DNA from: Bacillota bacterium
GTDB taxonomy: Bacteria > Bacillota > DULZ01
Assembly (NCBI GenBank): GCA_050951405.1
Contig: JBMNIZ010000016.1
Coordinates: 65,544 to 129,543, forward strand
Direction: 5' to 3'
DNA length: 64,000 bases
Part shown: positions 2,490 through 42,658 of the stretch, piece after piece
How positions within the stretch are numbered: the first letter of the stretch is position 1
Layout: each line of letters opens with the position of its first letter
Program-made: the position numbers and the translations under genes
Notes under the pieces: model-generated
What the model saw: only the letters and a program-made list of their open reading frames with translations
Database searches by the model: none
What the model was told of the DNA's origin: nothing

Positions 2490-2740
2490 AGTGACATTTT
2501 ATCAAGATAATTAACAAGATGACATTATCATAAGATAACAACACTGAAAAGGTAAGTTGTAAAATTAATTGCCGCATTTAATAAAAAATAGAGACTCAAG
2601 GCTAATGTTAATGGCCATGATAAAATCGACATAAATGGTCACGAAAAACCCGCAAAACCGGTCATTTAGAAAAGGAAAAAAGCTCGTTCCCTACAACATT
2701 TTCATTGGAACCAAAACATTAAAGAAGGGAACGAGCAAAA

Positions 2741-4222: not shown

Positions 4223-5007
4223 TTAGACAAATACCAACCGCCGATCGGAAAACCCTGGAACAGAATTTAAAAAGGTTAAGACTTCCCCATATTAGAAACA
4301 TCCTTGACGATGTTAATGAATTGGCGCTGGAAGAAGAACCATCCTACCTGGATTTCTTAGCCTATGTTATTAACAAGGAGGTGGAACATAGAGACAAGAC
4401 CCAACAAGAAAAAAGAATGAAAAGAGCCTGCTTTCCCCAGATAAAGACTTTGGAAGAATTTGATTTTAGTTTCCAAAACAGCATCACCCAACAAAGCATC
4501 TATGATCTGGCAACCCTTCAATTTATCGAAGCCAAGGAGAACATCATCTTTCTGGGTCCACCGGGAGTAGGCAAGAGCCACCTGGCCATTGCCCTGGGAG
4601 TTAAGGCAGTGCTAAAAGGTTACCAAGTCCGTTTTTACACACTCACGGACCTCATTGCCGAGCTTTATGCAGCTTTAGCCGATAACAGCCTGAACAGAAA
4701 GATTAACAATATCTTAAAAAATGACCTTATCATTCTGGACGAACTGGGCTATGTGTCCATGGATGAAACCGCATCAGACCATATTTTCCAGCTGGTCACC
4801 AAAGCTTACGAAAACCGTTCTTTGATCATTACCAGCAACCTGGATTTTGGAGAATGGGGCACTCTTTTTGTGAACATGAGTACTGCTGCAGCTATCTTAG
4901 ATCGCTTACTACACCATGCCCATGTGTTTAACCTTAGGGGGAACAGTTATCGGGTAAGAAACCGATTAATACAACCAACAAATAAGATAGCGGCAACTAC
5001 AGGCTAA
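4219..5007 (+). CDS. istB: IS21-family helper ATPase IstB (AAA+, Walker A GPPGVGKSHLA), 262 aa
   Basis: Translation shows a Walker A motif and a DnaC/IstB-like sequence. Confidence 0.85.
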   Translation: MIRQIPTADRKTLEQNLKRLRLPHIRNILDDVNELALEEEPSYLDFLAYVINKEVEHRDKTQQEKRMKRACFPQIKTLEEFDFSFQNSITQQSIYDLATLQFIEAKENIIFLGPPGVGKSHLAIALGVKAVLKGYQVRFYTLTDLIAELYAALADNSLNRKINNILKNDLIILDELGYVSMDETASDHIFQLVTKAYENRSLIITSNLDFGEWGTLFVNMSTAAAILDRLLHHAHVFNLRGNSYRVRNRLIQPTNKIAATTG

Positions 5008-5188
5008 ATAAACCGGATTAAGCGAGTGCGAATTGCCTAGGAGGCGTTCCGCTACGCTCCACTGCCTCCTAGGCAATTCCTCTACCGTTATCGCAAGGAT
5101 TAAATTCTGTATGACTGCTGGTTTTTCATGGCCAAAATTGCTGGTTTTTTAGTGACCAAAAATGCGGTTTTTCAAATGGCCATTGACA

Positions 5189-5217
5189 TTTAATAAAAAA
5201 TAGAGACTCAAGGCTAA
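5189..5217. repeat. 29-bp direct repeat tttaataaaaaatagagactcaaggctaa, also at 2577-2605, flanking the IS21 insertion (apparent target duplication of IS30 left-end sequence)
   Basis: The uninterrupted IS30 copy 2 (63617-63660, reverse complement) has this sequence only once. Confidence 0.75.
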
Positions 5218-5271
5218 ACCTCTGATATGTTTAAGGTAACTACGCTTAAAAACATAAAGGAGGCAAAGCAC

Positions 5272-6330
5272 ATGAGTCAACTCAATTGTACCACGACTTC
5301 CCGCCGCTTTAAACACATCACTGTAAAAGAACGCTATCAGATTGAAATTCTTCTAAAGGAGAAGAAGTCACCCAGCGAGATAGCAAAGCTGTTAGGCAAG
5401 CATAAGCGAACCATCGAACGTGAGATTGCCCGTGGAACTGTCAGGATGCTGAGAAGCGACCTGGTTTATGTTGATAGATACTGTGCAGATACAGCAGAGC
5501 GAATATACCGGGAGAGAGCTGCTAATAAGGGAGCATGCTTAAAGATCGGTCATGACCATGGACTAGCCGATTACATTGAAAAAAAGATTATCAAAGAGGG
5601 ATATACCCCTGACGCAGTCATTGGCGAAATCCGGGCAAAAGGCTTAAAATTTAAGACTAGTATATGCACAAAAACGCTCTATAACTATATCGACAAAGAA
5701 GTATTTGCAAATATAACAAATAAAAACCTTCCAGTAAAACGAGTACCTAAAAAAAATCGCCATAAGAGGGTACGAGTTGCCCACAACAATCTAAAAGGCA
5801 GAAGCATTGAAGAAAGACCTGCGGCAGCTAATACTCGTGAAGAAGCCGGCCATTGGGAGATGGATTGTGTTGTAAGCGGCAAAGGGAAAGGCAAAGCCGC
5901 ACTCTTAGTTCTAACAGAACGCAAGTTTAGAAAAGAGATTATCCGAAAGATGCCGGAAAAGACACAGAAATCAGTGAAGAAAACGCTGGATAGGCTTGAA
6001 AGAGAGTACGGAGCACGCTTTTCAGAAGTGTTCAAAACCATTACGGTAGATAACGGAAGCGAGTTTCTTAACAGTGTAGAATTAGAGAGTTCAATCAGAA
6101 AGCCGGGCACTCATCGGACTAAAATCTATTATGCTCACCCATTCAGCGCATGGGAACGTGGGTCCAATGAAAATGCTAATAAGCTAATACGTCGGTTTAT
6201 TCCAAAGGGCACAGATATCAGCAAGCTTAAACAGAAAGATATTAGGCGAATTGAGAACTGGATGAATAATTACCCAAGAAAAATTCATGGATATAAATCT
6301 GCCAATGAGATGGCAAAGATGGCAGTATAA
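5272..6330 (+). CDS. IS30-family transposase (HTH plus DDE), ~352 aa from the Met with an RBS (aaggagg N7 ATG)
   Basis: Translation MSQLNCTTTSRRFKHITVKERYQIEIL... has an IS30-like HTH and rve core; identical ORF at 62513-63571 on the minus strand. Confidence 0.8.
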   Translation: MSQLNCTTTSRRFKHITVKERYQIEILLKEKKSPSEIAKLLGKHKRTIEREIARGTVRMLRSDLVYVDRYCADTAERIYRERAANKGACLKIGHDHGLADYIEKKIIKEGYTPDAVIGEIRAKGLKFKTSICTKTLYNYIDKEVFANITNKNLPVKRVPKKNRHKRVRVAHNNLKGRSIEERPAAANTREEAGHWEMDCVVSGKGKGKAALLVLTERKFRKEIIRKMPEKTQKSVKKTLDRLEREYGARFSEVFKTITVDNGSEFLNSVELESSIRKPGTHRTKIYYAHPFSAWERGSNENANKLIRRFIPKGTDISKLKQKDIRRIENWMNNYPRKIHGYKSANEMAKMAV

Positions 6331-6523
6331 TCAGAGGATGCCAAAATATGGGTGGCAATTAAACTTGCAATTCCCCTGATGGGAAAAATTCTGCTAAGAT
6401 ATTGACTTCCAGAAAGGAGTATATTAAGCTGAAATTGGACCGATGGGTTTAATACCTGAACCAGCGGATCAAACATTTGACTGAGGAGTTTTCTGCACTG
6501 TTCTTGTCACCGAAGGAGGAACA

Positions 6524-7144
6524 ATGGTTACTAAGGAATCCCGTAAAGAAAAAGAAAGAAACTTTAGAAGAAAAATAATCGCTGATGCGGCCGAAAGACT
6601 TTTTTCCGCAAATACTTTTGAATTCGTCACGATGGAGGACATCGCCAGTGAAGCGGAATTTGCCAAAGGCACTCTTTATCAATATTTTAACAGCAAGGAT
6701 GATATTTTTGCCTATGTGATTTGCCGCAGCATCGATGAAATCTGCGAAAAAATCAAGAAAGAATGTTTGTCTGAGCAGACCGGACAGGAATCCCTGGAAA
6801 AGCTCATTGCTATTTATTACGAGTACTTACAGGAACGAAAAAACCTGTATATATCTTTCATCCGCCTCCAATTAAGCAACGCCTTACCGGAAGAAATTGT
6901 GACCAGAGTAACGAATTCACACCAGCAGAAAATGAAACTGGTGCAGCAGGTAATTGAACGCGGCCTTGAGGAAAAAATTTTTCTCCATGAGGATGCACAA
7001 ATGCTGCTGAAGACCATTGACGGCATCGTCAGGGGTTTTAATTTTACTTTTATCAGCGATGAATATGTAATAGACAGAGAAGAAAGCATTGGTTTAATAA
7101 AAAAGGTGCTATTCGGGGGAATTCTGGCTAAACGAGGCAGGTGA
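6524..7144 (+). CDS. TetR/AcrR-family transcriptional regulator, 206 aa
   Basis: N-terminal TetR HTH (IIADAAERLFSANTFEFVTMEDIASEAEFAKGTLYQYF). Confidence 0.8.
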   Translation: MVTKESRKEKERNFRRKIIADAAERLFSANTFEFVTMEDIASEAEFAKGTLYQYFNSKDDIFAYVICRSIDEICEKIKKECLSEQTGQESLEKLIAIYYEYLQERKNLYISFIRLQLSNALPEEIVTRVTNSHQQKMKLVQQVIERGLEEKIFLHEDAQMLLKTIDGIVRGFNFTFISDEYVIDREESIGLIKKVLFGGILAKRGR

Positions 7145-7198
7145 TTTGCGTCATGTGATTTGTTTAACCGGTCACAAATTAAATCACGGAAAGGAGTA
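7142..7198. promoter_or_regulatory. Candidate operator: gtgatttg x2 direct plus caaatcac inverted around a palindromic aaccggt, between the TetR gene and the symporter gene
   Basis: Read from the sequence; TetR-family proteins bind short palindromes next to their own or divergent genes. Confidence 0.15.
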
Positions 7199-7206
7199 CT
7201 GATTGG

Positions 7207-8613
7207 ATGGCAGGCATCGATTGGAGTTTCTTTGTAAGCATGGCTTACCTCTGTGTTTTTCTGTTGATTGGTACCTTTTTGCGTGCTCACTTGCGAATTC
7301 TACAAAGATGCTTGATTCCTGTTCCCATTATTGCCGGTTTTTTAGCAATAATATTTGGACAGTATGTGTTTAAGGTCATTGACCCGGATGAAATGGCTAC
7401 CTTAGTTTATCACTTCCTCACCCTATCATTTATTGCCATGGGTTTACGCGGCTCAAGAGTCAAACATAGTTACGGGACTATCACCACTCTTTTCATCCAC
7501 AATTTCGGCCACAATATTCAAGGTTTAATCGGCCTTTTTTTTACTCTTTTTCTTTTGCTCACCTACCTACCTGACATCTTCCCTACTTTTGGTATCATGC
7601 TCAACCTGGGTTTTGCCAACAGTCCGGGAGTAGCCTACAGCATCGGTACTGCCTGGGAAGGAATGGGTTTTGCAGGTGGAGGTCAAGTAGGTTTAACAGT
7701 GGGGGCTATCGGCTTTTTGGTTGCTTATGTTCTTGGTATTATTCTTGTCAATTGGGGTATTCGCACCAATAAAACTCACTATTTCAAAGGAATGGATGAA
7801 ATTCCCCAATCAGTATTTCGGGGTATCATCAAAAAAGATGAAGCCAAAGTGGAAGCAGGCAAACAAAATATGGCCCCAGAAGCTATGGATTCACTGACTT
7901 TGCATGTGGCCATCGTCGGAACAATTTTTTTAATGACTTACTTTTTCTTGATCAATCTTACCGGATGGATGGCCGGTTTTGGAGATCTGGGTCAAGACCT
8001 GGCCAATGTTATCGGTGGTTTTGGTTTCCTTTTCGGAGTATTGATTGCCTTTGTGGTTCGTAAAATATTGTTGACCACTAATTTGGACTATCTCATCGAT
8101 GACGGACTGTTGAGCAGATTGGGCGGCACCTTTGTAGATTTGATGATCTTGACTGGTATTGCGGGTATCTCTTTTGTAGTCATCAAAGCCTACCTGTTGG
8201 AGATCATCCTGCTCAGCATTATTGGCACTATTTGCATTCCTTTGACCACATACTATTTTGTTGATAAAATGCAGATCGACTTCAAGTTTGAACGGTTTAT
8301 ATCCTTATTTGGCATGCTCACCGGTACGGTGGCCTCGGGACTGGCCCTGCTAAGAATTGTTGACCCCCACTACGATACACCTGTTGCCGAGGATCTGGTG
8401 TATGCTGGAGGAATGAACCTGATTTTATCATTGCCATTATTATTCTTAATCAATATTCCCGCTTTGGGCTACGTCAAGGGGGAATCTATAAAGTCCATCC
8501 TCTTTGTAATCGGATGCCTGGCTGCATATTTTTTGACCATGTTTCTGGTCTGGAAGATATATGCGGTCTCTTATTTTAGGAAAAGAGAAAAATCAGAAGT
8601 CCTGGGCCAATAA
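7207..8613 (+). CDS. Sodium/glutamate symporter (GltS/ESL) family membrane transporter, 468 aa
   Basis: Multi-TM protein with sequence blocks that align to E. coli GltS (CLIPVPIIAGFL..., ...SPGVAYSIGT..., ...LTGTVASGLALLRIV...). Confidence 0.55.
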   Translation: MAGIDWSFFVSMAYLCVFLLIGTFLRAHLRILQRCLIPVPIIAGFLAIIFGQYVFKVIDPDEMATLVYHFLTLSFIAMGLRGSRVKHSYGTITTLFIHNFGHNIQGLIGLFFTLFLLLTYLPDIFPTFGIMLNLGFANSPGVAYSIGTAWEGMGFAGGGQVGLTVGAIGFLVAYVLGIILVNWGIRTNKTHYFKGMDEIPQSVFRGIIKKDEAKVEAGKQNMAPEAMDSLTLHVAIVGTIFLMTYFFLINLTGWMAGFGDLGQDLANVIGGFGFLFGVLIAFVVRKILLTTNLDYLIDDGLLSRLGGTFVDLMILTGIAGISFVVIKAYLLEIILLSIIGTICIPLTTYYFVDKMQIDFKFERFISLFGMLTGTVASGLALLRIVDPHYDTPVAEDLVYAGGMNLILSLPLLFLINIPALGYVKGESIKSILFVIGCLAAYFLTMFLVWKIYAVSYFRKREKSEVLGQ

Positions 8614-8787
8614 TCCTAAAACACTTTTAAGAAGCCGCCAAAGCCGGATAAAAAACTGTTTTAGTTGGCTAGGATCTTATATTACTGTTGCCGGAGAGGG
8701 CACTCCCGCCTTGGATCATACTTGAACAATCTTTCAGGGATTGCGGCATCCAAAAAGCAATTAATCCTACTATATAAACATTGAACA

Positions 8788-8833
8788 GGCAAGGGTACTA
8801 TCCTGAAGGGCAGCACCCTTGCCTAATTTTTCC
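8788..8833 (+). terminator. Candidate terminator after the symporter gene (9-bp GC stem ggcaagggt/acccttgcc, long loop, then taattttt)
   Basis: Read from the sequence; the loop is unusually long. Confidence 0.25.
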
Positions 8834-9188
8834 AAACAATGTGCAGCTGTCGCCTAATTTATTCATCATAAATGAATTTGTGCCAGGCCGGGCCTTTTGA
8901 TTGCAACATCCAAATAATCTTATAAATTATCTAAAGATATTATAATTATGTGTAAATCCTATAAATTTAACAAAGACACTTAATAAATTTATTAGTAGTA
9001 TTTCTTTGAATAGTGCTACACTCATGACGATGCGACTATTATTATGATCATGATCCTTTTACCGGATCTTGAGCCGAAAGCAGAAAGGGGTGATTTCCGG
9101 AAATACTTGATTGAGCTCGAAGCTGCAAAATAAACAGGACCAGCAAGAACCGATTTAGGGTTAAATACAATCAAGAAACCCTTAACCG

Positions 9189-10559
9189 GTGTCAGAACCC
9201 CTGTTTTCTCTCGTCTCTGTACTAAAAAATTCGAAAGGAGAGGAAAAATTGAGCCCTGAACTGATCACCGTATTAATGTTTGCCTGTCTTTTTATCAGCT
9301 TATTCATGGGCCTACCTGTGGCTCTCGGCCTGGGCGGTACCGCAGTTTTATTTGCCGCATTGATGAGCCCTCATACTTTACTTGCTGCTCCCAGCGCGTT
9401 TTTCTATACTCCCTGGCAGCATGTTCTGGTGACGATTCCCTTATTTCTGTTTATGGGGAATCTGATCAGATATTCAGGTATCGCTGAAGCTGCCTATGAT
9501 GCGGCATATAAATTAATCGGCCACCTACCTGGTGGATTAGCCATGGGTACAGTAGCAGTCTGCACTCTTTTTGCTGCCGTCACTGGGATCACTCCCCCGG
9601 CTACCATTACCATGGGGCAAATTGCTTACCCCTCCATGATGAAGTATAAATATCACAGAGGGATAGCCATCGGTGCCATCGGTGCAGGTGGAGCCTTGGG
9701 TGCCCTTATTCCTCCCAGTGTACCCTTTATATTTTACGGTCTTTTAGCTAAAGAATCCATAGGGGCTCTTTTCTTGGGGGGGATCGTACCGGGATTGCTT
9801 CTGGCCTTCTTATACATGGCATATATTGGTATCAGGTGCAAAATACAGCCTCATATGGGACCGGCCTTACCTCCAGATGAAAGATTTACTTTGAAAGAAA
9901 AAGTCACGTCCCTGCTAGCTATCTGGCCCTTCATTGTTCTCATTATCGTTGTATTAGGGGTCATCTGGCTCGGTGTGGCTACTCCCGCTGAAGCAGCCGC
10001 TTTCGGCGCTGCCGGCGCTCTTCTCATTAACCTCATTTATCGCAGGCTTACCTGGGAAATATTTAAAACTTCCATTTCCACCACAGTAAAACTGGTGGGA
10101 ATGGGATTCTGGATCCTGATCGGCGCCAATCTGTTTGTGAACGTCTTCAGCGCCTTGGGCTGTCAGGACGTTGTTACCTCCACTGTTCTGGGCATGCCCG
10201 GCGGTAATATGGGTGTCATTATTATGATGATGATCGTCATCATGATTTTAGGCATGGTGATGGATGACTGGGCTATTATCATGCTGGTCACTCCCCTGTA
10301 TGTACCCATCCTCCACGAGCTCGGCATCTCCACCCTCTGGTTCGGTATACTATTCATTGTTAATATTCAGATCGCTTACCTGTCACCGCCATTCGGTTTT
10401 GTTTTGTTCTGGATTAAGAGCATATTACCCAAGGATGTCACCATGGGGGATGTTTATTTATCGGTCTTCCCGTTCATTATCCTGCAAATCATCGGTTTAT
10501 CTTTGTTAATCATTTTCCCGGAAATCGGTTTATGGCTACCTAGTACGATGCTTAAATAG
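9189..10559 (+). CDS. dctM: TRAP transporter large permease subunit (DctM family), 456 aa as given; the real start may be an internal Met
   Basis: Polytopic membrane protein with a DctM-like sequence (GLPVALGLGGTAVLFAALM...); followed by dctP and dctQ. Confidence 0.8.
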   Translation: MSEPLFSLVSVLKNSKGEEKLSPELITVLMFACLFISLFMGLPVALGLGGTAVLFAALMSPHTLLAAPSAFFYTPWQHVLVTIPLFLFMGNLIRYSGIAEAAYDAAYKLIGHLPGGLAMGTVAVCTLFAAVTGITPPATITMGQIAYPSMMKYKYHRGIAIGAIGAGGALGALIPPSVPFIFYGLLAKESIGALFLGGIVPGLLLAFLYMAYIGIRCKIQPHMGPALPPDERFTLKEKVTSLLAIWPFIVLIIVVLGVIWLGVATPAEAAAFGAAGALLINLIYRRLTWEIFKTSISTTVKLVGMGFWILIGANLFVNVFSALGCQDVVTSTVLGMPGGNMGVIIMMMIVIMILGMVMDDWAIIMLVTPLYVPILHELGISTLWFGILFIVNIQIAYLSPPFGFVLFWIKSILPKDVTMGDVYLSVFPFIILQIIGLSLLIIFPEIGLWLPSTMLK

Positions 10560-10594
10560 ACGGATTGCTTGACTTATTGCCCATGCTCAGGACC

Positions 10595-10654
10595 TCTGTT
10601 TATTTCACTATACTTCATACCAAGTCTGTTTATTTCACTATACTTCATACCAAG
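10595..10654. repeat. Perfect 30-bp tandem duplication (tctgtttatttcactatacttcataccaag x2), ~95 bp upstream of dctP
   Basis: Read directly from the sequence. Confidence 0.9.
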
Positions 10655-10749
10655 ATGGAATAATACACCAAAGGAGGTGTTTATAAACGATAATTGTTGT
10701 ACAGTACCTCTGTAAACGAAAGTATTATCAAGGGAAAGGGGTATGAGTA

Positions 10750-11865
10750 ATGAGAAAACATTTGACCTTGTTACTTGCAGTGCTGCTGGTATTCTGCGTT
10801 ATCGCTGTGGTTGGCTGTGGTGGGGGCTCAAAACCACCGGCAGAAGAACCCAAAGGAAATGGTGCCGAAGCTGAATATGGGCCTCCGGATACGGTAACCA
10901 AGTGGGTCTTCCAGCCCTGCTTTGATTCAGGAGACGCGGGCTGGGCCAAAGGTGTAGTGCCCTGGATTGAAGAGGTGGAAAAAGTAACCGAAGGCACGGT
11001 TCAAATTGAGTTGCTGGCTGCCGGCTCCATTACCAGTGGAGACGAAGCCTTTGGTGCCTGTTCTGCCGGGATGATCGATGTTTATGCCGGCTGGGCCACT
11101 GTCTATGGTGGAGACATGCCTGAAGGGATGTTGGCCTATGGATTGGCCATGGGTGCCGATACTCCGGAAGAAGCCTGGGAAGCCATGTGGGGAGATCCCA
11201 AATATCGAATCGGAGAAATTGTGCAAGAAGCCGCCCACGAGCATAATGTCCACTGGATAGGCTGGACCTGCCAAGGGCCCAATTCCGTTTTCTCAAACTT
11301 CCCCATCCGTCGCCTGGAGGATTTCGCCGGGCATAAACTTAGAGCCGGCGGCCCGCAAGCCATCTTCCTGCAAGCCATGGGGGGCACACCCGTCTCCCTG
11401 CCTGCCAGTGAAATTTACATGTCTATCACTCTAGGCACCATCGAAGGGACCCTCTGGGACTACTGCCGGCTATGCCGTGATATGAAGTATCACGAAGTAA
11501 TGTCAAATATGCCATGCTGCCCGGCTGGTGCCCCACCCAACACCAGGAGATCTACGTCAATCTGGACAAGTGGAATGCACTGAATGACTGGCAGAGAGAT
11601 CGGATCAGCGAAGTCTTCGAGCCCAATTACTTCAAAACCAGCCAGACTGCATGCTGATGGCGTTGAGGCCGCCATCCAGGCCTTGCAGGACCAGCGGCGG
11701 TGAGGTGATCACTCTGTCTGACGAAGAGGTGGAAAGGATGCGTGTCAAAGCCATAGAAGAAATATGGCCCAAGGTCGCCGCATTCCTCAGAACGCTGTAC
11801 CCGGGGTGTTGAACTGTGGAAACAATTCCTCCAGGATAAAGGAAAAATATAAGATAGAATAGTAT
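10750..11865 (+). CDS. dctP: TRAP transporter substrate-binding lipoprotein (DctP family); reading frame broken at least three times between ~11470 and 11820 (pseudogene or assembly errors)
   Basis: Lipoprotein signal LLAVLLVFCVIAVVGCGG and a DctP-like body; the C-terminal segments (...YAMLPGWCPTQHQEIYVNLDKWNALNDWQRD..., ...GEVITLSDEEVERMRVKAIEEIWPKVAAFL..., ...ELWKQFLQDKGKI*) are in three different frames. Confidence 0.7.
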
Positions 11866-11893
11866 ACGATCAGAAGGGGGCGTATTGGGCACG

Positions 11894-12408
11894 ATGGGGG
11901 TCTGGACCAAGGTTGAGCGGCTGATTGATTCCCTTAGCCGAATTATTGGGCAGAATAGGTTGGCTTGATCGTGATTTACAGTCTGGTCTTCGGACTGACA
12001 GACGTGATCCTGCGCTACTTTCTCAACCGGCCCTCCCTGTGGATCTCTGTCACCGTACAGTATGCCATGGTGTTGCTGGCGTGCGTATCCGGGGCATACG
12101 CCCTCAACCACGATGCTTTTGTGAAGCTGGACCTTTTCTATGCTCGTTTTTCGCCGCGGACTCAAGGCAATCTGCGACATATTGACCTTCTCTCTTTACG
12201 TTGCTATACTTGTCTGTGCTCATCTGGAAGGGAATGCAAGCAGCCGCCCATTCCATTGCCATACGCCAGAGTGACACCAACGGCCATTCCCATACCTCTT
12301 TATCATCTCAAATCCTTCATACCTGTAGGAGCATTCTTTACACTTCTGGTAGCTATTAAGAAACTGGTTCAGGACTTCCAGATCTTAATTAAAGGTAGTG
12401 CAAACTAA
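11894..12408 (+). CDS. dctQ: TRAP transporter small permease (DctQ family), frame-disrupted (N-terminal MGVWTKVERLIDSLSRIIGQ in another frame)
   Basis: Translation fragments in two frames match the DctQ topology and N-terminus. Confidence 0.6.
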
Positions 12409-12451
12409 AAGCTACCTGAGTGTAACAACATGACGGGCACCCCCTTCATTA

Positions 12452-12487
12452 TAAAAACCCCCCAGGTTGTACCTGGGGGGTTTTTCA
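12452..12487. terminator. Bidirectional intrinsic terminator between convergent dctQ and the M20 gene (aaaaaccccccagg-ttgta-cctggggggttttt)
   Basis: Perfect 9-bp GC stem flanked by A5 and T5. Confidence 0.85.
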
Positions 12488-12510
12488 ACTAAAGATCACT
12501 AGATGATTCC

Positions 12511-13646
12511 CTATCCTTCCCAATTGAGCATAGTGGCCAAATAGATCTGGGAAGCTTTCAAAAGCTCATCTAATGATACTCTTTCATTTTCCTTATAAAC
12601 ATTGTCTTGGAGTTTTCCCGGCCCAAAAATAACTCCTTTAATTCCACGTCTTCTGTACACTGTGCATTCAGCCGTTCCAATATAACCGGAATATGTTACC
12701 GGAATCCCTACTTGAGAGCAGGATTGGGCCACTGTCCGGACAATTTTATCATCACGGCATATTTCCCAAGGTTCTCTTCTCTCCAGTTCGTTGATCTCCG
12801 CCTGAAAATCGGGGATTTCATTTTTCAGACATCGAAATATATTCTCCATCTCCTGCCAGATGCAATCAGGGGTCTGACCCGGTACCAATCGCACATCCAC
12901 ATTGAGAGTACAATGGTCCGGGATGACTCCCCAAGCTTCTCCGCCGTGGATCATGGTGGTTTGCCAAAAAGTTTCTCCCAGGACCGGGTGTTTTTGGAGA
13001 GAAAAAGAGTGCTCCTCCATCTTATTCATTAGCTTCAAGGCTCTGTGGATGGCATTGACCCCGGCCCCTTTCACAGAAGCATGAGCCGTCTGCCCAAACA
13101 CGGTGACTTCCGCCCACATGCGACCTTTACTGCAGATCTGCACTTCCAGATTGGTAGGTTCGCAGCAAATCGCCCTTTCCACATCAGAGATGAAAGAACT
13201 CTCTGCCAACTTCTTTGCTCCCATCATTAAGTTTTCTTCATCAACCGTAGCCGCTAAGATGATGTCACCTTTGGGCCTGACTTTGTTGGCAGCAAGAGTG
13301 CCCATGGCCACCATCACAGAAGCCAACCCGCCCTTGGCATCGGCGGCCCCTCTGCCATACAGAAATCCGTTGCTGATTTCACCCGAAAAAGGGCCATAGT
13401 CCCAGCGTTTAGCCTCATAAGAGCTGACGGGGACCACATCCATATGGCTGGAAAACAAGATAGAGGAGGAGCCTCGCCCTTCTCCCGGTAACCGGGCCAC
13501 AACATTATACCTTCCGGGAAGCACTTCTTGCGATGAACAGTCTCAATGCCCTTGGCTCTCCATATAACTCCGCACATATTCGGCCCACTTCCGCTCTCAT
13601 TGCCGGGGGGGTTGATGCTGGGCATTCGCACCAATTGCCGGGCCAC
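12511..13646 (-). CDS. M20A-family metallo-amidohydrolase (ArgE/DapE/N-acyl-amino-acid deacylase type); one frameshift near 13520-13560
   Basis: Motifs SSHMDVVPV, GRGAADAKGG and EENLMMGAKKL plus a dimerisation domain; the N-terminus (MARQLVRMPSINPPGNESG) is in an overlapping ORF. Confidence 0.75.
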
Positions 13647-13936
13647 CTGCAGTCAGAGTCATCGATATTGATTAGATCAATGATAGCTATTGTCACCACT
13701 CTTCAAAAGCGCCATCATGCAAGATCTCCTCGCTGCTTTCTGCAAAACATGACGATCGAACCTGAAAAGATAGAGAAAATTCCTGAGAATAAGTCAGGAA
13801 ACCCTTTTAAAAAATTATGCGAAGTAAAAACACGTGAAATGACCAAAGCAACACCCTCTAGTGCCCCGGGGAACAGGTATGCAAAACCCGGCGCTATAAT
13901 GCAGCTCTTGGTCGATTCAGAACATATCAACCAATT

Positions 13937-14008
13937 CATGTGGGAGCACCCTCCCTTGAGTCCAGATCTACCAGCTAGTAGATTGACAAAGGGAGGGGCT
14001 CCCACATG
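13937..14008. repeat. 21-bp inverted repeat (catgtgggagcaccctccctt ... aagggaggggctcccacatg) with a 30-bp spacer, in the ~470-bp gap between xsc and the M20 gene
   Basis: Read from the sequence; one indel or mismatch between the arms. Confidence 0.8.
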
Positions 14009-14115
14009 AAAACATACGGAACCCCGCTAGAAGTCAACTTGAGCAATTTTGATGCCTGGTCCCGAGCATTTATTGATTCGTCCGCGAGCTGCCTCATCTT
14101 CCCTTACGCCTGCTC

Positions 14116-15851
14116 TTACCAGTTCCGGTGATCCAAGTGGGCATACTTGGGCAGCAAGCGGGTGGGCAAAGCCAGGGCGTCTTTCCGGAAGGGAGGCGCC
14201 AGCATGCTCCCGTCTACCATGAATTCCAGCACCACCGGCACTTCCGAACGTGAAGGCTTCGTCCAAGTGCGTCCTTGATGTTCTCCGGCTTGTCGAATCT
14301 GAATGCCTTTGGCGCCCATGACTTCCGCAACCTTGGCCCAGCTGGGGGCTTTGATGTCCGCTCCCACAAAACGGTTGTTGTAGAAGTCGACCTGGTTTTT
14401 CTTTTCCGCTCGCCCAGGCCCCGTTGTTGAAGACGCAGGCAATGACGGGCAGGTTCTGCTCGACGGCGGTCATGACTTCGTAGAAGCTCATCCCCCAGGC
14501 CCCGTCACCCACAATGGCCAGGACCGGGCTTTCGGGGCTGCCCAGTTTGGCGCCCAAGGCCGCCTGTATAGGCAAAGCCCGTGTTCCCGAAGGTCAGGCA
14601 GGCAATGTGTTTTTTGGGCTGGGTGAATCTCAGGTAGCTATTGGCTGTGGAAGAAACGTTACCGATATCGGTGGTAACGATGGTGTCCTTGGGCATGAAG
14701 TTGGCTATTTCGTAGAGTGCTCTTCTGGGGTTAATAGGGTTACCATCTTTTAGAGCCAGTTCTTTGATTTCTTGGTCCCAGGCTTGTTGTTTTTCTTTGA
14801 TTTTAGCCATTTTTTCCTGGTCTACTGGTCTTTGTTCTTTGGCTTTTAGGATGTTTAAGATTTCTTGAGAGGCTATTTTGGCGTCTCCTACGATGCCCAC
14901 TTCTACCGGGTGTCTTCTGCCGATCTGGGTAGGGTTGATGTCGATCTGGATGATTTTTTGGTTACCGGTAAAGTAGGTGATGTCGTATTGGGGCAGGGTA
15001 CCAAAGACTGAGAGTCTGGTACCGATAGCAAAGATCACGTCTGCTTCTTTGATGGAGTTCATGGCTCCTTTGGAGCCCATGTAGCCGATGGGTCCCACCC
15101 AGTAGGGGCTATCGCTGGGGAAGGCATCGTTATGCAGGTAGGATACGGCTACCGGGGCAGTCAAATACTCCGCCAGTTGGGCAATCACGTGGATGGCACC
15201 TGCGTCTACTGCTCCTCTTCCGGAGAGGATGGCCGGGTTTTTGGCTTCGGACAGTATTTTTGCTGCTCTTTCAAGGATTTCTTTATCCGGTGTTTGTTTG
15301 GTGGTGGCCCGGTATTTTTCCGGTGGCAGGATCTCGTCTTCCAGTTCGCCGTAGAAGTAGTCCCTGGGGATGTCCAGATAGACGGGCCCTCTTTGGGCGT
15401 AGGCGATCCGGAAGGCGGTCCTGACACAGTCTGCCGCCCGGCTGGGGTGCGGTACTCTGAAGGCTGCTTTGGTGACTGGTTTGAAGATGGACACCTGGTC
15501 CGCTTCCTGGAAGCCGTCCCAGCCCACGGTGGCGCTGCCGGCCGAGGGGCCTAAAATGACCATGGGGGTGTGGGCATGGTAGGCGGTGGCCACGCTGGTG
15601 ACCAGGTTGGTGATGCCGGGGCCGTTTTGGCCGGTGCAGACGCCGATTTTGCCGCTCACCCGGCCGTAGGCGTCCATCATGTGGCCGGCGGTGTGTTCAT
15701 CGCGCACCGGGATGAATTTGATGCCGGCGGCGGGAAACAGGTCCAGCATGTCCATGAAGGCTGAGCCCACGATCCCGGCGCAGTATTCCACTCCTTCTGC
15801 TACCAGTTGTTCCACGATGGCTTCGCTGGGGGTCATTTTTACTTTTGCCAT
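14116..15851 (-). CDS. xsc: Sulfoacetaldehyde acetyltransferase (TPP-dependent, Xsc); frameshifted at least twice in the 14400-14600 region
   Basis: TPP-enzyme N-terminus ([34 protein letters not shown]...GQNGPGITN), DGAWGM motif and C-terminal [18 protein letters not shown], which match my recollection of Xsc more closely than acetolactate synthase. Confidence 0.65.
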
Positions 15852-15933
15852 TTGTCGGCCTCCTATTAAGTTTTTATTGTCTATGGTCTATGCCAAAGAT
15901 ACCTTGGCTCCAGGGGCAGCTGCTATCGAAAGC

Positions 15934-17316
15934 TACTGATTCTTTTCCAGTGCCGCCCGCACTGCGCTGGCAATCTGATCGATTTCTTCTTTCGTAACAA
16001 CCAGGGCAGGGGCAAAACCCACCACATTATTTAAGCCCGGTATACTTCGGTTGGTTTTGCCGATCACCACCCCTTCTTCTTTCGTTCGCTGCCACAATCT
16101 TATTCACGTACTCTTCGCTGGCGGGAGCTTTGGTCTTTTTGTCTGCTACCAGCTCTATGCCGGCAAACAATCCTCTACCCCTTACTTCTCCCACGGTGGG
16201 GAAGCTTTCCAGTTCCTTGAGGCTTTGCAACATATATGCGCCCATTTCTTTACTTCTGTCGCAGAGTTTTTCTTCTTCAATAATCCGGATATTTTCCAAA
16301 GCTGCCGCCGCTCCACCTGCACATCCCCCGTAGGTGCTGATGTCGCGGAAGTAGGCCAGTTTGTCTTTCGGTTCGTTCAAAAACTGTTTGAAGATTTCTT
16401 CTTTGGCCATGGTAGCTGAAATGGGTACGTAGGAACTGGCCAACCCTTTGGCCATGGTGATCATATCCGGATCCACGTCATAATGCAGGTGTCCAAACCA
16501 TTTTCCTGTCCGACCAAATCCGTTGACCACTTCATCCAGAATCAGCAGCACTTCATATTTCCTGCAGATTTCTTGGATGACAGGCAGATATTCATCCACT
16601 GGGACGATCATGCCGCCCCCTGCGGTCATGGGTTCCAGGATTACTGCTGCAACTGTGTCCGGATCTTCTTTTTTAATGATATCTTCTAAAGCATGGGCAC
16701 ATTCCAGGTCGCAGCCGGGATAAGACTTACCAAAGTGGCACCGGTAGCAAAGACAGTGGGGCATCTCCACAAAGCCGGGTGCCAGCGGCTCATAGTGAGC
16801 TTTCCTTTCCTGTTGGCCTGAAGCGCTCAAGGTGGCCAGGGTTGTGCCGTGGTAATCCCGATGTCGATAGATTATCTTATACTTGGTGTTTTTGTCTCCA
16901 TACTTCAGTTTAAAATACTGCCTGCTCATTTTAAAGGCTTTTTCATTGGCTTCAGAACCGCTGTTGGAAAAATACACCCTTTGCAGCCTAGGAAGCAATT
17001 CAGTCAGTTTATCTGCCAGCTTGATGGTGGGGATATTAGCTAAAGAAAGTGCATAATAGGGCATATTCTTCAACTGTTCATAAACAACTTTTGCTATACT
17101 TTCCCTGCCATAACCCACATTGACGCACCATACTCCTCCGGCTACCGCATCCAAATACTCTTTTCCCGTACTGTCTTTCAGGATACAGCCATTCCCTTCA
17201 ATCATGATGGGAGGCGCCTGCTTCTGAAAAACGCTGTGTTGGGTTAAATGATGCCACAGGTGCTCTAGGTCTTTCTGCTGGAGCTGCTTCAAGTCATTGG
17301 TTGCCTTATTCTCCAT
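15934..17316 (-). CDS. tpa: Class-III (omega) aminotransferase, probably taurine:pyruvate aminotransferase; one frameshift near 16040
   Basis: PLP fold class III sequence; sits immediately upstream of xsc as in known taurine-degradation loci; the true C-terminus (...PGLNNVVGFAPALVVTKEEIDQIASAVRAALEKNQ*) is in another frame. Confidence 0.6.
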
Positions 17317-17651
17317 TCGGGTTAACCTCCTTTATTTTTTTCTTCCCAGCCATGCAGCCCCATCATGGCTTGCCGCGCCACCACAAAATACTGCATAGAT
17401 GAGGAAGTTAAGTTTACTGTACCATGATTGGAAATAGTAGGCTTAATAAAAGGATTTAGTATTTTTTATGAAATCTTTGGAGCTTAAACCGTTCTTATAT
17501 TATCTTTGGCATTATTATTAAAATCCTTGGAACTTTCCTCAAAGAAAAAAGCCGTGCCGCTTAAACCGAAGCACCACAGCTTTTCATTTCAGTTTGTACA
17601 TTATCCGGTTATAACCATAGGAGCGGAAAACAGAGAAAGCGGTGGATTTTT

Positions 17652-18417
17652 ATTTCCATTGAGAAAATTGCCTGCGATACTCAGAGGGACAAATACCCAA
17701 ATTTTTTTTAAAGACAGCAGTCAAATAACTATTGTTACTCAATCCTACCCGGCTGGCAATTTCATCTACGGAATCATTGGTTGACAACAGCAGTTCCTTT
17801 GCCTTGGCAATTCTTACCTCGGTTATGTACTCGGTAATGCCTTGGCCAGTCGTTTTTTTGAAAACAGTGCTGATGTAAGAAGGGTTATAATAGAGAAGCT
17901 CTGCAAAGGTATTGCAAGGTTAGTCTTTGATCGTAATTTTCTAGGATGAATTTCTTGATTTTGCGCACAGTATCATTTTCCTGCTCTCCGGTCACCGCAT
18001 CCTGGGGATGGCCGTGGAGCACCTCTTCTTCTCCATTTCTTTTCTCTTCAATAAAGTCAATCACGCGCTGTATAGATGCTACTAACTCTTGTGGACGGAC
18101 AGGTTTTAGAAGATAGTCGGCAGCTCTTAGTTTCAGGCTGAATTGGAATAGGAAAAACTGCTATAGGCCGTTATAAATATCACTTCCACCCTTTGGTCCA
18201 TTTCTTTAATTGTTTTCACAGCATCCAGACCATTCATTCCCGGCATTTTAATATCGATAAGAATAATCTCCGCCCTGGTCGTACTGAACAATTTTATCGC
18301 TTCATACCCATCAGCAGCCTCCCCCACGATTTTTACCGGCAATTGGCTGTCACAAATCTGCTTGTACAAGACCTGTCTTTCCAGCTCTTCATCCTCTACG
18401 ATCAGGAGCTTGTACAT
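17652..18417 (-). CDS. Two-component response regulator, CheY-like receiver plus AraC-type HTH output (YesN-like); at least two frameshifts
   Basis: REC domain (LLIVEDEELE...ILIDIKMPGMNGLD...) and AraC HTH (...ITEYITEVRIAKAKELLLSTNDSVDEIASRVGLSNNSYLTAVFKK...EYRRQFSQWK*). Confidence 0.7.
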
Positions 18418-18497
18418 GAAATACCTGCCGCCTCCTTTCAACAATCAAGTAATATTGTCAGGCCGTTACTCCCCGAAAACAACCGGCCGTGATGATC

Positions 18498-19763
18498 TTA
18501 ATAATGTGAAAGTTGCAGCAAGCTTCCGGACGTTTTTTCGCCGGGCAACAATACTTTGACCTGGGTCTTGCCCTTTTCCTGAACAATCCTCAACCCGAAA
18601 TCAGCCCCGAAACATAATTGCAACCGGCTGTGAACATTGATCAAGCCCAGGCTATCTTTTTTGACAATCGCGTCCAGACAGTTGGGAAAGTTCTTGACGA
18701 TTTCCGCTGGCATGCCCAATCCGTTATCCTCCACCACCAGCTCAATTCCGTCGTCTAAGGTCCGGCCGCTGATCAAAACGTAGCCATTGCCCTGTTTGGG
18801 TTCAAGACCGTGCATAATGGCATTTTCCACCAAGGGCTGTAAGGTAAAATAAGGCAATTCCACTTCCATCAGCCGGTTATCCATCTCAATTCTATAATTC
18901 AACCTTTCACCAAACCTTATTTTCATTAACTGCAAATAATTCTCCACATTGCGCAGTTCTTCTTTCAGCGTAACTAGTTCACCGGACCTGGTTAAATTGT
19001 ATCTGAGGATTTCTGAGAGGGAGTAAACCACTTCCAAGGCTTCAGTCTTTTTATCTAAGAAAATCAATCCGGACAGAGTATTTAAGGTATTGAAGAGAAA
19101 ATGCGGTTGGATTTGCGATTGAAGATTTTTCAATTCCGCCAAGCGCAAGCTGTTTTCCAGTTCTGTCTTAGTTTTCGATTCTAAAATATGTACTATCTTT
19201 TGTTTCAGTCGCCCTTCCTGTTCTTTTGCCCGAAAAATCAATTCGGTGATATAATTGACCACAAATTGAATCAAGTTGGAGATGGCGGCACACTTTTCAT
19301 GGCTGATCACTTTAATCTGCAAAAAGGAATCCACCAACATCTCCCGAGTAAAGCCCAAATCACTGGTAGCTTTTAACATTTTTCCCAATGTTTTTTCATT
19401 GGGTACTTCCAGGTGGATCTGGCAACAAGTAATTGAACCCAAAAATAAATCTTGCACAATAATCGGCAAGGCCATGACCAAAGCACCCGCATGACAAGGA
19501 GCCATGGCCACCTGCCCTTTGTTGGCCGAGTGAAACCCAACGCTGGCTTTAGATTCGATGCAGCGCCTCAATCCTTTTTCCGTGGAACAGATATATTTAC
19601 AGAAACCGGTATAGTAATTATGCTCCACTAATGGAAATCCTAAATTGTCATTCACATCTATGGTAATATCCATCACATTATTGATACTTTTAATGAATTG
19701 GAGCATTTTATCATTTTCTATGAGAAGCAAAAGTTCCGGTTTTTCTGTTGGCAAGAGCATCAC
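18498..19763 (-). CDS. Sensor histidine kinase with an N-terminal PocR-type ligand-binding domain and no evident TM segments (cytoplasmic), HisKA_3/HATPase_c C-terminus, 421 aa
   Basis: PocR-like Cys/His-rich N-terminus, then QIQPHFLFNTLN (H-box) and a GHKL ATPase (VEDNGLGM). Confidence 0.7.
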   Translation of the reverse strand: MMLLPTEKPELLLLIENDKMLQFIKSINNVMDITIDVNDNLGFPLVEHNYYTGFCKYICSTEKGLRRCIESKASVGFHSANKGQVAMAPCHAGALVMALPIIVQDLFLGSITCCQIHLEVPNEKTLGKMLKATSDLGFTREMLVDSFLQIKVISHEKCAAISNLIQFVVNYITELIFRAKEQEGRLKQKIVHILESKTKTELENSLRLAELKNLQSQIQPHFLFNTLNTLSGLIFLDKKTEALEVVYSLSEILRYNLTRSGELVTLKEELRNVENYLQLMKIRFGERLNYRIEMDNRLMEVELPYFTLQPLVENAIMHGLEPKQGNGYVLISGRTLDDGIELVVEDNGLGMPAEIVKNFPNCLDAIVKKDSLGLINVHSRLQLCFGADFGLRIVQEKGKTQVKVLLPGEKTSGSLLQLSHY

Positions 19764-19999
19764 CCCAAAAGATATTATCGCCCTTTATGCCGGAGCTGAA
19801 AAAAGCCGGTAAAAATAGCAAAAGCAACTTATAAGTAAATAAAATCACAAAATCTAAGCTGCGTCTTTTGCTCAAAATTTTACAGGTCCCATCCAAATTC
19901 CTTTAAAAAAATTTGTTATTCTATTGATTACTGATCTAATCTTTTATAAATATCATATAGCATTTTACTATTTATTTCAATAGCAGCAGTTTTTGCTTT

Positions 20000-21064
20000 C
20001 TATTTGAGCCCATTCCTCTTATAGCTATGTCCCATCCGCGAGGCAAAGTAGAACAGTAGAATCCTGGCAATGGCTGCCGCTGGCACCGCCAACAGCATGC
20101 CCAGAACACCATAAAGCTTGCCGCCCAACAGAAGGACAAAAATTACCGTTAAAGGATGCAGCCCAACGCTGGAGCCCAAAACTTTTGGTGAGATAATATT
20201 GCTCTCCAATTGTTGAACAACCACCATCACCACGAGGACGGAAAGGGCCATCTTTTTGGAATGCAAAATGGCCAGGGCTAGAGCGGGGATGGCCCCAATA
20301 ATAGGCCCAAAGTACGGGATAATATCGGCCAGTCCGGCAATCATACCCAAGAGAAAGGGAAAATCCAGCCCAATGAGAAAAAAACCTGTAGACGTCAGCA
20401 GACCCACGAGCAATGCAACTAGAAGGTGACCTCGGACAAACTTCATCAAAACTTGATCAATTTCCTGCCAAAGGTAGAGAAATTCCCAGCGCCAACGGAC
20501 TGGGATCATCTCCAGAAAACGCCTGCTGATTTCTTTCTGATCGAGGAGGATATAAAAGGCCAGAACAGGAGAGATGATTATGCTGAATGTATGGGAAAAA
20601 ATGCCTAGAAGGCCGCTGATGATTTGTCCCATTGTACCGGTCAAGGCCTGCTCCACATTAAAGATAACGTTATCAATTTCCAGACGAAGGCTTTCCGGAA
20701 TAATAATCCTTTGGTAATCAGCGTAAAAGTCCTGCAAAATTGCATGTACCTGTCTGGTGTAAGTGGGAATGGAATACATCAATACGTCCAGCTGACGCCA
20801 GAAAATAGGAATGAAATAAGTACCCATCAAGGCAAAACCTATGATCAGCAGTAAATAGGTCAGCAGAATACTGCTGCTGCGGGAAAGTTTTTTTTCTTGC
20901 CAAAATTCTACAGCAGGATTTAGTACATAGGCCAAGAAGAAGGCCAGAAAGAAGGGAATGAGGATACTCCTGATCCAATAGAGAAAAACGCCTGCGATAA
21001 ATAGGCCAGCGGCTATCAGAAATAGACGTAGGATTTTGGGGGATATTACCAGTTTATTCACCAC
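20000..21064 (-). CDS. AI-2E (PerM/YhhT/TqsA) family transporter, 354 aa
   Basis: Eight-TM protein with AI-2E-family sequence. Confidence 0.7.
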   Translation of the reverse strand: MVNKLVISPKILRLFLIAAGLFIAGVFLYWIRSILIPFFLAFFLAYVLNPAVEFWQEKKLSRSSSILLTYLLLIIGFALMGTYFIPIFWRQLDVLMYSIPTYTRQVHAILQDFYADYQRIIIPESLRLEIDNVIFNVEQALTGTMGQIISGLLGIFSHTFSIIISPVLAFYILLDQKEISRRFLEMIPVRWRWEFLYLWQEIDQVLMKFVRGHLLVALLVGLLTSTGFFLIGLDFPFLLGMIAGLADIIPYFGPIIGAIPALALAILHSKKMALSVLVVMVVVQQLESNIISPKVLGSSVGLHPLTVIFVLLLGGKLYGVLGMLLAVPAAAIARILLFYFASRMGHSYKRNGLK

Positions 21065-21121
21065 TTTCCTGCCGGTTTCCGGTAGACCCTGGGAAGAAAA
21101 AGTGAGGGGGCAACCCTCACT

Positions 21122-21322
21122 TTACTTTTTCCAGATTTCTTTCACTCCGTCCTTAACTCCTTCCATGGCTCTTTGCGCTTTGACTGAAATGCGTCTGGTC
21201 CGGTTTTGTATATCTGTCATGGCTTCATCCTGGATCTTTTTGCCGGGAGCTGCCAGGAGATTGCTGAGGAAGCCCCCCAGCAATCCTCCGGTGATGACTC
21301 CTCGCCAAAATTCTCTGGCCAT
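21122..21322 (-). CDS. Small hypothetical protein (YtxH-like, Gly-rich amphipathic), 66 aa
   Basis: ORF only. Confidence 0.3.
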   Translation of the reverse strand: MAREFWRGVITGGLLGGFLSNLLAAPGKKIQDEAMTDIQNRTRRISVKAQRAMEGVKDGVKEIWKK

Positions 21323-21342
21323 TTCTTTATACCTCCTCTGCC

Positions 21343-21543
21343 TTAAACATCATTATCCAAAGAAACCAGCTGTCCATCTTCTGCCACTTGGTAAAAACGA
21401 TTATAAGTATCAAACTCAACAAAACAATTCCAACAGTAATATTGATCAGAACCGATTTTTCCTACCTGACGTCCTCCGCAAGCCGGGCAAGGCAACATCC
21501 TATTCCATCCTCCCATATCCTTTGAAGACAAAGGGTTTTTCAT
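21343..21543 (-). CDS. Small C4 zinc-ribbon protein (CPACGG...CWNC), 66 aa
   Basis: Two CxxC pairs in the ORF. Confidence 0.35.
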   Translation of the reverse strand: MKNPLSSKDMGGWNRMLPCPACGGRQVGKIGSDQYYCWNCFVEFDTYNRFYQVAEDGQLVSLDNDV

Positions 21544-21655
21544 CTAGCATTGCCAGAAAACCGAAGAAAAATACAAAAAAGCTCCCGCCGGGAGCCCTTA
21601 TAATAAAAAATATTGACTTTAGGACCTGCCTAAAAAAGCAAAATCACCCGATTTT

Positions 21656-22730: not shown

Positions 22731-22768
22731 TTTGGATTGGTATCACCCATTTTACCACCTCAGAGGAA

Positions 22769-24350: not shown

Positions 24351-24400
24351 CTCTTTTAAGAAAATATGAAGACAAATTTTAGATATAGTACATATAAGAA

Positions 24401-42607: not shown

Positions 42608-42658
42608 GTTGTTATCTTGTGATAATGTCATCTTGTTAATTATCTTGATAAAATGTAC

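Follow-up and report, generated by a model that had tools for sequence, protein, structure and literature searches.

Can a bacterial locus in which six genes are interrupted by insertions and deletions (indels) of 1–2 bp still encode a catabolic pathway, and if so, for which substrates? This question is raised by positions 6524–19763 of a 64,000-nucleotide stretch of contig JBMNIZ010000016.1 from a Bacillota bacterium (assembly GCA_050951405.1). The whole stretch is referred to here as the window; the contig it comes from is 207 kb long and belongs to a metagenome-assembled genome (MAG). The locus carries a gene for sulfoacetaldehyde acetyltransferase (Xsc) next to one for a candidate taurine-pyruvate aminotransferase (Tpa), together with genes for a tripartite ATP-independent periplasmic (TRAP) transporter, an M20 metallohydrolase and a PocR-kinase/AraC two-component system. 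We propose that it is probably a catabolic module for taurine-type C2 aminosulfonates in an uncultured spore-forming member of the Bacillota, and that the window copy is a mis-assembled mosaic of two lineages. The conversion of taurine via sulfoacetaldehyde to acetyl phosphate and sulfite by Tpa and Xsc is textbook knowledge, and much of the sulfite and H2S formed in guts, sediments and digesters stems from taurine and taurine conjugates. The routes that lead into this pathway in Gram-positive anaerobes, and its regulation there, are poorly described.

Xsc and the adjoining aminotransferase

Profile scores firmly assign the thiamine pyrophosphate (TPP)-dependent enzyme of the locus to Xsc. The intact ortholog on the Joint Genome Institute (JGI) metagenome contig L001 (positions 10001–11731) reaches 815.4 bits with the Xsc equivalog model TIGR03457, for which the cutoff is 676.4 bits, against 388.5 bits with the acetolactate synthase model acolac_lg. 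The 448-amino-acid N-terminal Xsc fragment of the window shows the same preference by itself (616.5 bits for TIGR03457 versus 293.5 bits for acetolactate synthase). The first-pass annotation had called the enzyme Xsc and had staked this call on exactly the distinction from acetolactate synthase, which is decided here in its favor. All three TPP-enzyme domains, N, M and C (PF02776, PF00205 and PF02775), are represented in Xsc, and the window fragment is 66% identical over its 448 residues to Xsc of Desulfonispora thiosulfatigenes. A PDB sequence search returned no close solved structure.

The neighborhoods of related enzymes were surveyed in the best 80 Xsc loci of GTDB species-representative genomes, where the best identity was 80%. 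The closest Xsc sequences are 82–85% identical, and three such loci were examined. In two of them (L004 and L088) xsc belongs to a sulfoacetate-type cluster that also encodes an aldehyde dehydrogenase, an ADP-forming CoA ligase, TctABC and, in one case, TauE; the third (L087) has an aldehyde dehydrogenase among otherwise unrelated neighbors. Xsc enzymes of very similar sequence are thus fed by different pathways. Of the two xsc copies in Desulfitibacter alkalitolerans, one lies in a taurine-type and the other in a sulfoacetate-type context.

The gene next to xsc encodes a class-III aminotransferase (PF00202 at 5e-85). In its intact form the enzyme scores 552 bits with PRK07678 (cutoff 488) and falls below the equivalog cutoffs for bioA (298 bits, cutoff 405) and argD (272 bits, cutoff 410); none of the equivalog models for GABA, ornithine or BioA aminotransferases is passed. 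Among solved structures the best relative is an uncharacterized Bacillus enzyme, and the taurine:2-oxoglutarate aminotransferase 6jix is distant (180 bits). Orthologs with 57–72% identity directly adjoin xsc in 8 of the 80 best Xsc loci (L007, L009, L018, L019, L032, L058, L065 and L075), and a 75% identical ortholog does so in the D. alkalitolerans locus L090. The two genes are also neighbors in the window, in L001 and in L093, and in L007 they complete the classical ald-tpa-xsc trio with an alanine dehydrogenase gene. Many homologs at 60–68% identity carry the automatic name taurine-pyruvate aminotransferase in JGI and UniRef. The view that this is not an aminotransferase of the GABA or ornithine type therefore holds up, given the scores below those equivalog cutoffs and the adjacency to xsc, which is seen in nine or more other loci. 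We regard the enzyme as a candidate Tpa, Tpa-like by genomic context only.

Genes of the locus

Genes were called from a listing of open reading frames (ORFs) and from Pfam and NCBIfam profile scans of the window. The calls agree with the gene list and coordinates of the first-pass annotation, including the TRAP transporter, the PocR kinase and AraC regulator, the TetR regulator and the M20 protein. The features are as follows.

1143–6330: nest of insertion sequence (IS) elements by Pfam, with an rve-type transposase at 1143–2489 (−), IS21 IstA/IstB at 2741–5007 (+) and an IS30-like element at 5227–6330 (+)
6524–7144 (+): TetR regulator, intact (PF00440, 1.9e-14)
7207–8613 (+): polytopic membrane protein of 468 amino acids, a distant relative of GltS/ESS-type symporters, intact
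9189–10559 (+): DctM, TRAP large permease, intact (PF06808, 5e-81; TIGR00786, 303 bits)
10750 to ~11853 (+): DctP, TRAP solute-binding lipoprotein (PF03480), with six insertion events in the window copy
~11894 to 12408 (+): DctQ, TRAP small permease (PF04290), with five single-base insertions
12511 to ~13751 (−): M20 (ArgE/DapE-type) metallohydrolase (PF01546, PF07687, TIGR01910), with 11 insertion events that break its 5' third
~14116 to 15851 (−): sulfoacetaldehyde acetyltransferase, Xsc (TIGR03457), with five single-base insertions in its 3' third
~15933 to 17316 (−): class-III aminotransferase, candidate Tpa (PF00202, PRK07678), with an insertion at 16086 that breaks the last ~50 codons
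17650 to ~18417 (−): REC-AraC response regulator, in three frames owing to a deletion at 18137 and an insertion at 17911
18498–19763 (−): PocR-His_kinase, intact (PF10114, PF06580, PF02518)

To the right of the locus follow an AI-2E permease, two small ORFs and mnmA, and past mnmA the usual Firmicutes block of iscS/rarA and, further on, aspS/hisS/relA/recJ/secDF/tgt/queA/ruvAB. As had been noted before, neither pta nor TauE is linked to the locus, and a phosphotransacylase (PTAC) was likewise not found within the window. The lack of pta is unsurprising, since acetyl phosphate can yield ATP directly via acetate kinase. The M20 gene does lie downstream of xsc, as described earlier, but the proposed co-transcription of the two is uncertain, with a gap of ~316 bp between them in the intact copy L001. 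Rfam scans of the window and five related loci gave no riboswitch or leader in the locus, and matches to promoter and terminator consensus motifs in L001 were no better than those in shuffled sequences.

The TRAP transporter is complete, with a solute-binding protein (PF03480), a small permease (PF04290) and a large permease (PF06808). DctM exceeds the TIGR00786 cutoff of 268 bits and, judged from a 436-amino-acid ortholog, likely starts near 9249; it is 79–85% identical to its counterparts in L007, L090, L091 and L092. DctP has the lipobox VVGC, and its closest solved structures in a PDB sequence search are distant lactate and dicarboxylate binders, the closest being a lactate binder at 101 bits. 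The 468-amino-acid membrane protein has no Pfam or NCBIfam match of its own, even at E=10. The earlier assignment of this permease to the GltS family stands in a distant sense, as 13 of 37 full-length homologs (25–37% identical) match PF03616, the best at 1.7e-20, but there is no direct PF03616 match; JGI names the protein an ESS family glutamate:Na+ symporter. The TetR regulator is weakly similar to Bacillus FadR (73 bits, cutoff 200).

The window copy and its two source lineages

DctP, DctQ, M20, Xsc, the aminotransferase and REC-AraC are the six genes interrupted in the window, each spread over at least two frames. Contig L001, which represents what we call lineage A, has the same locus in the same gene order with all genes intact, including DctP (364 amino acids), DctQ (169 amino acids) and REC-AraC (255 amino acids). 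A second lineage, B, is represented by the Logan/ENA contigs L006, L094 and the 20-kb L093, and both lineages occur in digester-type metagenomes. Identity between the window and L001 is 100% over 5187–11000 and 16500–22500, 84–98% over 11000–16500 and ~80–88% past 22500. Two further features are defined by these comparisons.

11000–16500: apparent blended-consensus zone of lineage A (L001-type) and lineage B (L093/L094/L006-type)
22500–22650: lineage switch point inside mnmA, with 100% lineage A to its left and 99–100% lineage B to its right

Throughout the first of these, nearly every indel relative to L001 is a 1–2-bp insertion in the window. Substitutions run one way, from A to T, C or G, from T to C or G and from C to G (order A<T<C<G), and GC-to-AT changes are absent outside the center of xsc. 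That center (14500–15500) is 96–97% lineage-B-type (L093/L094/L006), and its flanks are blended: on both sides single sites are drawn alternately from the A or the B haplotype, with the G or C allele picked at 55 of 66 and 47 of 50 sites at which the two disagree (83–94%). Five bases are inserted within xsc, and at four of these positions the window has both haplotype alleles in tandem. At one such site lineage A reads GATT-GAC, lineage B reads AATC-GAC and the window reads GATTCGAC.

Similar damage is found past the locus. Over 22500–25900 the window is 99–100% identical to L093 (10 mismatches in 3.3 kb), with six insertions that break rarA, rrf2 and mnmA; at least one of the six, at 25419, sits where A and B differ and has the tandem-allele pattern. 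Past ~25900–26000 the window is only 76–80% L093-type. The essential gene aspS (30751–31750) is split between frames, and relA (35425–36705), at only 426 amino acids, is probably broken in the window as well.

Two side observations concern the contig as a whole. The sharp lineage switches at ~22.5 and ~25.9 kb give the impression that it is pieced together from related strains or species outside the locus too, and the hits in mnmA, rrf2 and rarA (22600–25900), aspS and relA indicate an indel problem that is contig-wide and not specific to the sulfonate locus. Homopolymer or methylation-type sequencing error was considered as a cause of the indels and rejected, because most insertions lie outside homopolymers and cluster where the haplotypes differ.

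The base-dependent alternation between haplotypes, the tandem alleles and the frameshifts in essential genes lead us to conclude that the sequence at 11.0–16.5 kb very probably arose when assembly or polishing collapsed two lineages that occur together, and not through recombination or gene decay. Such blending most likely created the frameshifts and contributed to the raised G+C content of this zone. Because xsc is G+C-rich in the intact L001 copy too, the composition signal would come partly from the gene itself and partly from blending. In the actual organisms the genes are most likely intact, as they are on the independent contigs L001 and L093.

A module shared with other genomes

M20, PocR kinase, REC-AraC regulator, DctMPQ and aminotransferase recur in L001 and in four more loci, in shuffled order and at 51–85% protein identity. 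In L007, from an uncultured Bacillota bacterium, the order is M20, kinase, regulator, alanine dehydrogenase gene (ald), aminotransferase, xsc and DctMPQ. The cultured D. alkalitolerans (L090) has aminotransferase and xsc, then M20, kinase and regulator, and then DctMPQ, with other genes between these groups. Two Peptococcaceae MAGs (L091 and L092) have ald, aminotransferase, an aldehyde dehydrogenase gene, M20 and kinase, and then the regulator, a second kinase and DctQPM. The gene immediately preceding that of the PocR kinase is M20 in each of the four. That this linkage outlasts rearrangement argues for a shared function. The 468-amino-acid permease and the TetR regulator occur only in lineage A (the window and L001) and fall outside the conserved module. 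The gene set had been described as unusual; it is not unique, since it recurs in at least five other genomes, but we found no paper that describes the combination.

Because L091 and L092 lack xsc, the substrate shared by these modules could be broader than taurine. No glycyl-radical isethionate lyase (sulfolyase) was found within 10 kb of the L092 module. On the same contig as L092, a region next to the module (L096, 880–8611) encodes EutN, bacterial microcompartment (BMC) shell proteins, an RnfC-like protein, EutQ, an aldehyde dehydrogenase, a PduL-type PTAC and an Amidohydro_2 protein; this microcompartment locus has no recognizable signature enzyme within 10 kb. In L007 (270–2677) the module directly adjoins pylC- and pylD-like pyrrolysine biosynthesis genes.

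The M20 hydrolase and the two-component system

The M20 protein has the catalytic and dimerization domains (PF01546 and PF07687) and passes TIGR01910 (235 bits, cutoff 217.6). It passes no equivalog model (DapE, ArgE or YgeY) and has no signal peptide. Conserved motifs include HMDVV, GRGAADAKGG, DEE and CEPT, and the module-linked members retain the Glu-Glu pair of the catalytic site and the other metal ligands, including those of site 1. In all seven of these, the last metal-binding His is replaced by Tyr (xHKENE to YKENE), GTTDG has become (G/A)TAEC and ADMKGG has become ADAKGG. M20 therefore lacks the full di-metal ligand set (His, bridging Asp, Glu, Glu, His). Relatives have the last His, as does the solved structure 7uoi, and neither the Tyr nor the (G/A)TAEC change is found in the eleven other, more distant M20 homologs that were aligned. 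An M20 clade with an altered metal site, attached to such a locus, is not described in the literature searched, and nothing relevant was found there that links M20 or Desulfitibacter to taurine.

We suggest tentatively that M20 might act in the cytoplasm as an amidohydrolase, releasing taurine from an amide conjugate after its import, by analogy with the NaaS logic of N-acetyltaurine degradation in proteobacteria (PMC4334477). A more far-reaching and somewhat less probable version of this idea is that the Tyr-clade M20 could be a new, dedicated amidohydrolase of strict anaerobes for N-acyl or other amide conjugates of taurine, that the PocR kinase and its AraC regulator could be the first two-component sensor of a taurine-type sulfonate, and that these proteins and the TRAP transporter could jointly make up a portable front end. 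If this were true, the front end would plug into different desulfonation back ends, via Xsc or aldehyde dehydrogenase routes, and M20 substrates could include N-acetyltaurine or the N-acyl taurates of digesters and guts.

The kinase combines an N-terminal PocR domain with His_kinase and HATPase_c domains. It has no membrane-anchored sensor domain, and its only hydrophobic stretch falls inside the PocR domain; the kinase should therefore sense a cytoplasmic ligand. No literature was found that ties this type of PocR-kinase/AraC two-component system to taurine, and such control of a taurine-type locus is not described in the literature searched.

Proposed pathway

From gene families and gene context, we propose that the sulfonate is imported by the DctPQM TRAP transporter, which would be anchored through its lipoprotein. 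If the compound arrives as an N-acyl or other amide conjugate, the cytoplasmic M20 protein might release taurine as a deacylase, which is the weakest step of the scheme. The Tpa-type aminotransferase would then transfer the amino group of taurine to pyruvate, yielding sulfoacetaldehyde and alanine. Xsc, assigned to its family by profile score, is predicted to convert sulfoacetaldehyde and phosphate to acetyl phosphate and sulfite, with acetyl phosphate as a potential source of ATP via acetate kinase. The genes might be switched on by the PocR-domain kinase and the REC-AraC regulator upon binding of an intracellular ligand.

Age of the locus and IS elements

The locus had been viewed as an IS-flanked island. 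An IS nest does form its left border, but its right border consists of AI-2E, YrzR and mnmA without IS elements. A recent IS-borne import does not fit the data, as the block of kinase, regulator, tpa and xsc occupies the same site by AI-2E and mnmA in both lineages. The order common to A and B is mnmA, YrzR, small ORF, AI-2E, PocR kinase, regulator, aminotransferase and Xsc. Between the lineages, the kinase and regulator are 82–84% identical and the aminotransferase and Xsc 89–90% identical at the protein level, and the neighboring core proteins Rrf2, IscS, NifU and MnmA are 86–93% identical. This core-like divergence at a shared site argues that the sensor-tpa-xsc block is older than the split of A and B and was not recently imported.

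Downstream of xsc, lineage A has M20, TRAP, permease and TetR genes and then IS elements; in lineage B a gene for a 468-amino-acid aldehyde dehydrogenase follows directly (L093, 13227–14633). This downstream segment is the variable part of the locus. The IS21 element is an extra insertion that is not in the otherwise identical L001, and the IS30-like copy (5187–6400) is 99.6% identical to a second copy at 62462–63680. Two related rve-type transposases (448 and 501 amino acids) share terminal sequence (2494–2605 and 42607–42656).

Other features of the window

The only Rfam matches in the window lie elsewhere and are a 6S RNA (115 bits; 29677–29858, −), which overlaps the annotated start of a ThiF-family ORF, and a T-box leader (108 bits; 33146–33372, −) upstream of the hisS/aspS region. 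At 27051–28796 (+), two adjacent ORFs of 346 and 230 amino acids without a Pfam match lie on the strand opposite to their neighbors, in a stretch of strongly positive GC skew (+0.22 to +0.27).

Alternative explanations

Several observations weigh against the interpretation of the locus as a taurine module in a mis-assembled copy. Enzyme activities, induction and ligand binding are all predictions, and the aminotransferase is a putative Tpa by its gene neighborhood. The M20 protein, without the canonical last His ligand, might not be a normal hydrolase, and the module of L091 and L092 has, instead of xsc, an aldehyde dehydrogenase gene and a microcompartment locus as its neighbors. The case for lineage collapse is based on comparison with other assemblies and not on reads, and it does not explain why a consensus caller would prefer G and C. 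Finally, the REC-AraC indels (18137 and 17911) and the aminotransferase insertion (16086) lie in stretches that are otherwise 100% identical to L001, and they could be real.

These last indels are also what true decay would produce. Pseudogenizing mutations amid expanding IS elements would have left the taurine pathway dead, a scenario that accommodates the six frameshifted genes of the locus as well as the several IS families and repeated IS copies in the window. We consider it very unlikely, given that similar indels break the essential aspS, truncate relA and hit rarA, rrf2 and mnmA, that nearly all events are insertions, with both haplotype alleles in tandem at most of those checked, and that substitutions follow the one-way order A<T<C<G. 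Independent assemblies with intact genes and 100% identical flanks likewise speak against decay. A biological mosaic appears less plausible still, to the point of being highly improbable. Here mismatches in a recombination heteroduplex would have undergone patchy repair in favor of G and C (GC-biased gene conversion), and the 100% identical blocks would represent gene flow of a 17-kb segment between species ~15–20% apart in their core genes. The sharp switch from 100% lineage A to 99–100% lineage B at ~22.6 kb and the site-by-site alternation with its 83–94% preference for G/C alleles agree with such a process. Yet the tandem inclusion of both alleles, which frameshifts at least five genes, is no known repair outcome, the same insertions occur in essential core genes, and the co-occurrence of both lineages in digester-type metagenomes is the very condition for haplotype collapse.

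Two further alternatives concern the function of the intact locus. It is conceivable, though in our estimate improbable, that the front end (TRAP, M20, two-component system, Ald and aminotransferase) serves broader omega-amino compounds, such as beta-alanine, hypotaurine and their amides, with Xsc as one interchangeable back end. L091 and L092, which pair this front end with an aldehyde dehydrogenase of 505–517 amino acids and a microcompartment locus, would fit, as would the aldehyde dehydrogenase that takes the place of M20 after xsc in L093; omega-transaminases of this class often take several substrates. Against this, the aminotransferase adjoins xsc in the window, L001, L007 and L090, and sulfoacetaldehyde is the only known substrate of Xsc. 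For M20 itself, an alternative that we hold to be unlikely, though less so than a broad front end, is that it does not hydrolyze taurine conjugates but is a nearby housekeeping deacylase of the ArgE/DapE type or a non-catalytic, signal-making partner of the PocR kinase. The protein passes no model narrower than that of the ArgE/DapE subfamily, the Tyr substitution extends across the clade, and the gene lies directly upstream of the kinase gene in four genomes and not beside tpa or xsc. However, linkage to the aminotransferase, TRAP and two-component genes has been kept through rearrangement in six loci at 68–75% identity, which makes a housekeeping gene unlikely, and the retained site-1 ligands and Glu-Glu pair also favor catalysis. 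A catabolic module for taurine-type aminosulfonates remains our preferred interpretation of the locus, with the role of M20 as its most tentative part.

Implications

This contig shows how the collapse of lineages can yield false frameshifts, false shifts in G+C content and false 'islands', and pseudogenes in this MAG should be treated with suspicion. The conserved unit of M20, PocR two-component system, TRAP transporter and Tpa provides a candidate conjugate hydrolase, transporter and sensor, all of which could be tested in the cultured D. alkalitolerans.

Relation to known systems

One close parallel is anaerobic taurine fermentation or respiration via Ald, Tpa and Xsc, as described for D. 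thiosulfatigenes, together with the Tpa step of Bilophila wadsworthia. The window locus shares with it the TIGR03457 Xsc family and the adjoining class-III aminotransferase, and its sister locus L007 also encodes an alanine dehydrogenase. Unlike this system, the locus in the window and in L001 has no ald, pta or TauE, and it has PocR-kinase/AraC regulation and an attached M20 gene. The xsc gene of D. thiosulfatigenes itself sits in an unrelated neighborhood.

The proteobacterial TauKLM/TauR loci and the N-acetyltaurine locus naaS/naaT/naaR/naaABC of Cupriavidus necator and Ruegeria pomeroyi (PMC4334477) follow the same logic as that proposed here, with uptake, optional amide hydrolysis, transamination and Xsc, and TRAP-type importers stand beside catabolic genes in both the TauKLM loci and the locus studied here. 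The putative hydrolase of the window locus is, in contrast, an M20 protein of the ArgE/DapE type with an altered metal site. Regulation would be by a two-component system and not by LysR or GntR proteins, and the host is a Gram-positive anaerobe. In sulfoacetate clusters, SauCD, SauS and SauXYZ are combined with Xsc (PMC10413351). The closest relatives of the Xsc described here (L004 and L088) sit in such clusters, whereas the window locus lacks their genes and Xsc would be fed by the aminotransferase instead.

The two-component pair matches the YesM/YesN-type systems and the PocR sensor domain of propanediol regulators in its domain composition, which are PocR, His_kinase and HATPase_c in the kinase and REC and HTH_AraC in the regulator. 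It differs from YesM/YesN-type systems in having no extracytoplasmic sensor, in that PocR is fused to the kinase, and in the linkage of its genes to sulfonate catabolism.

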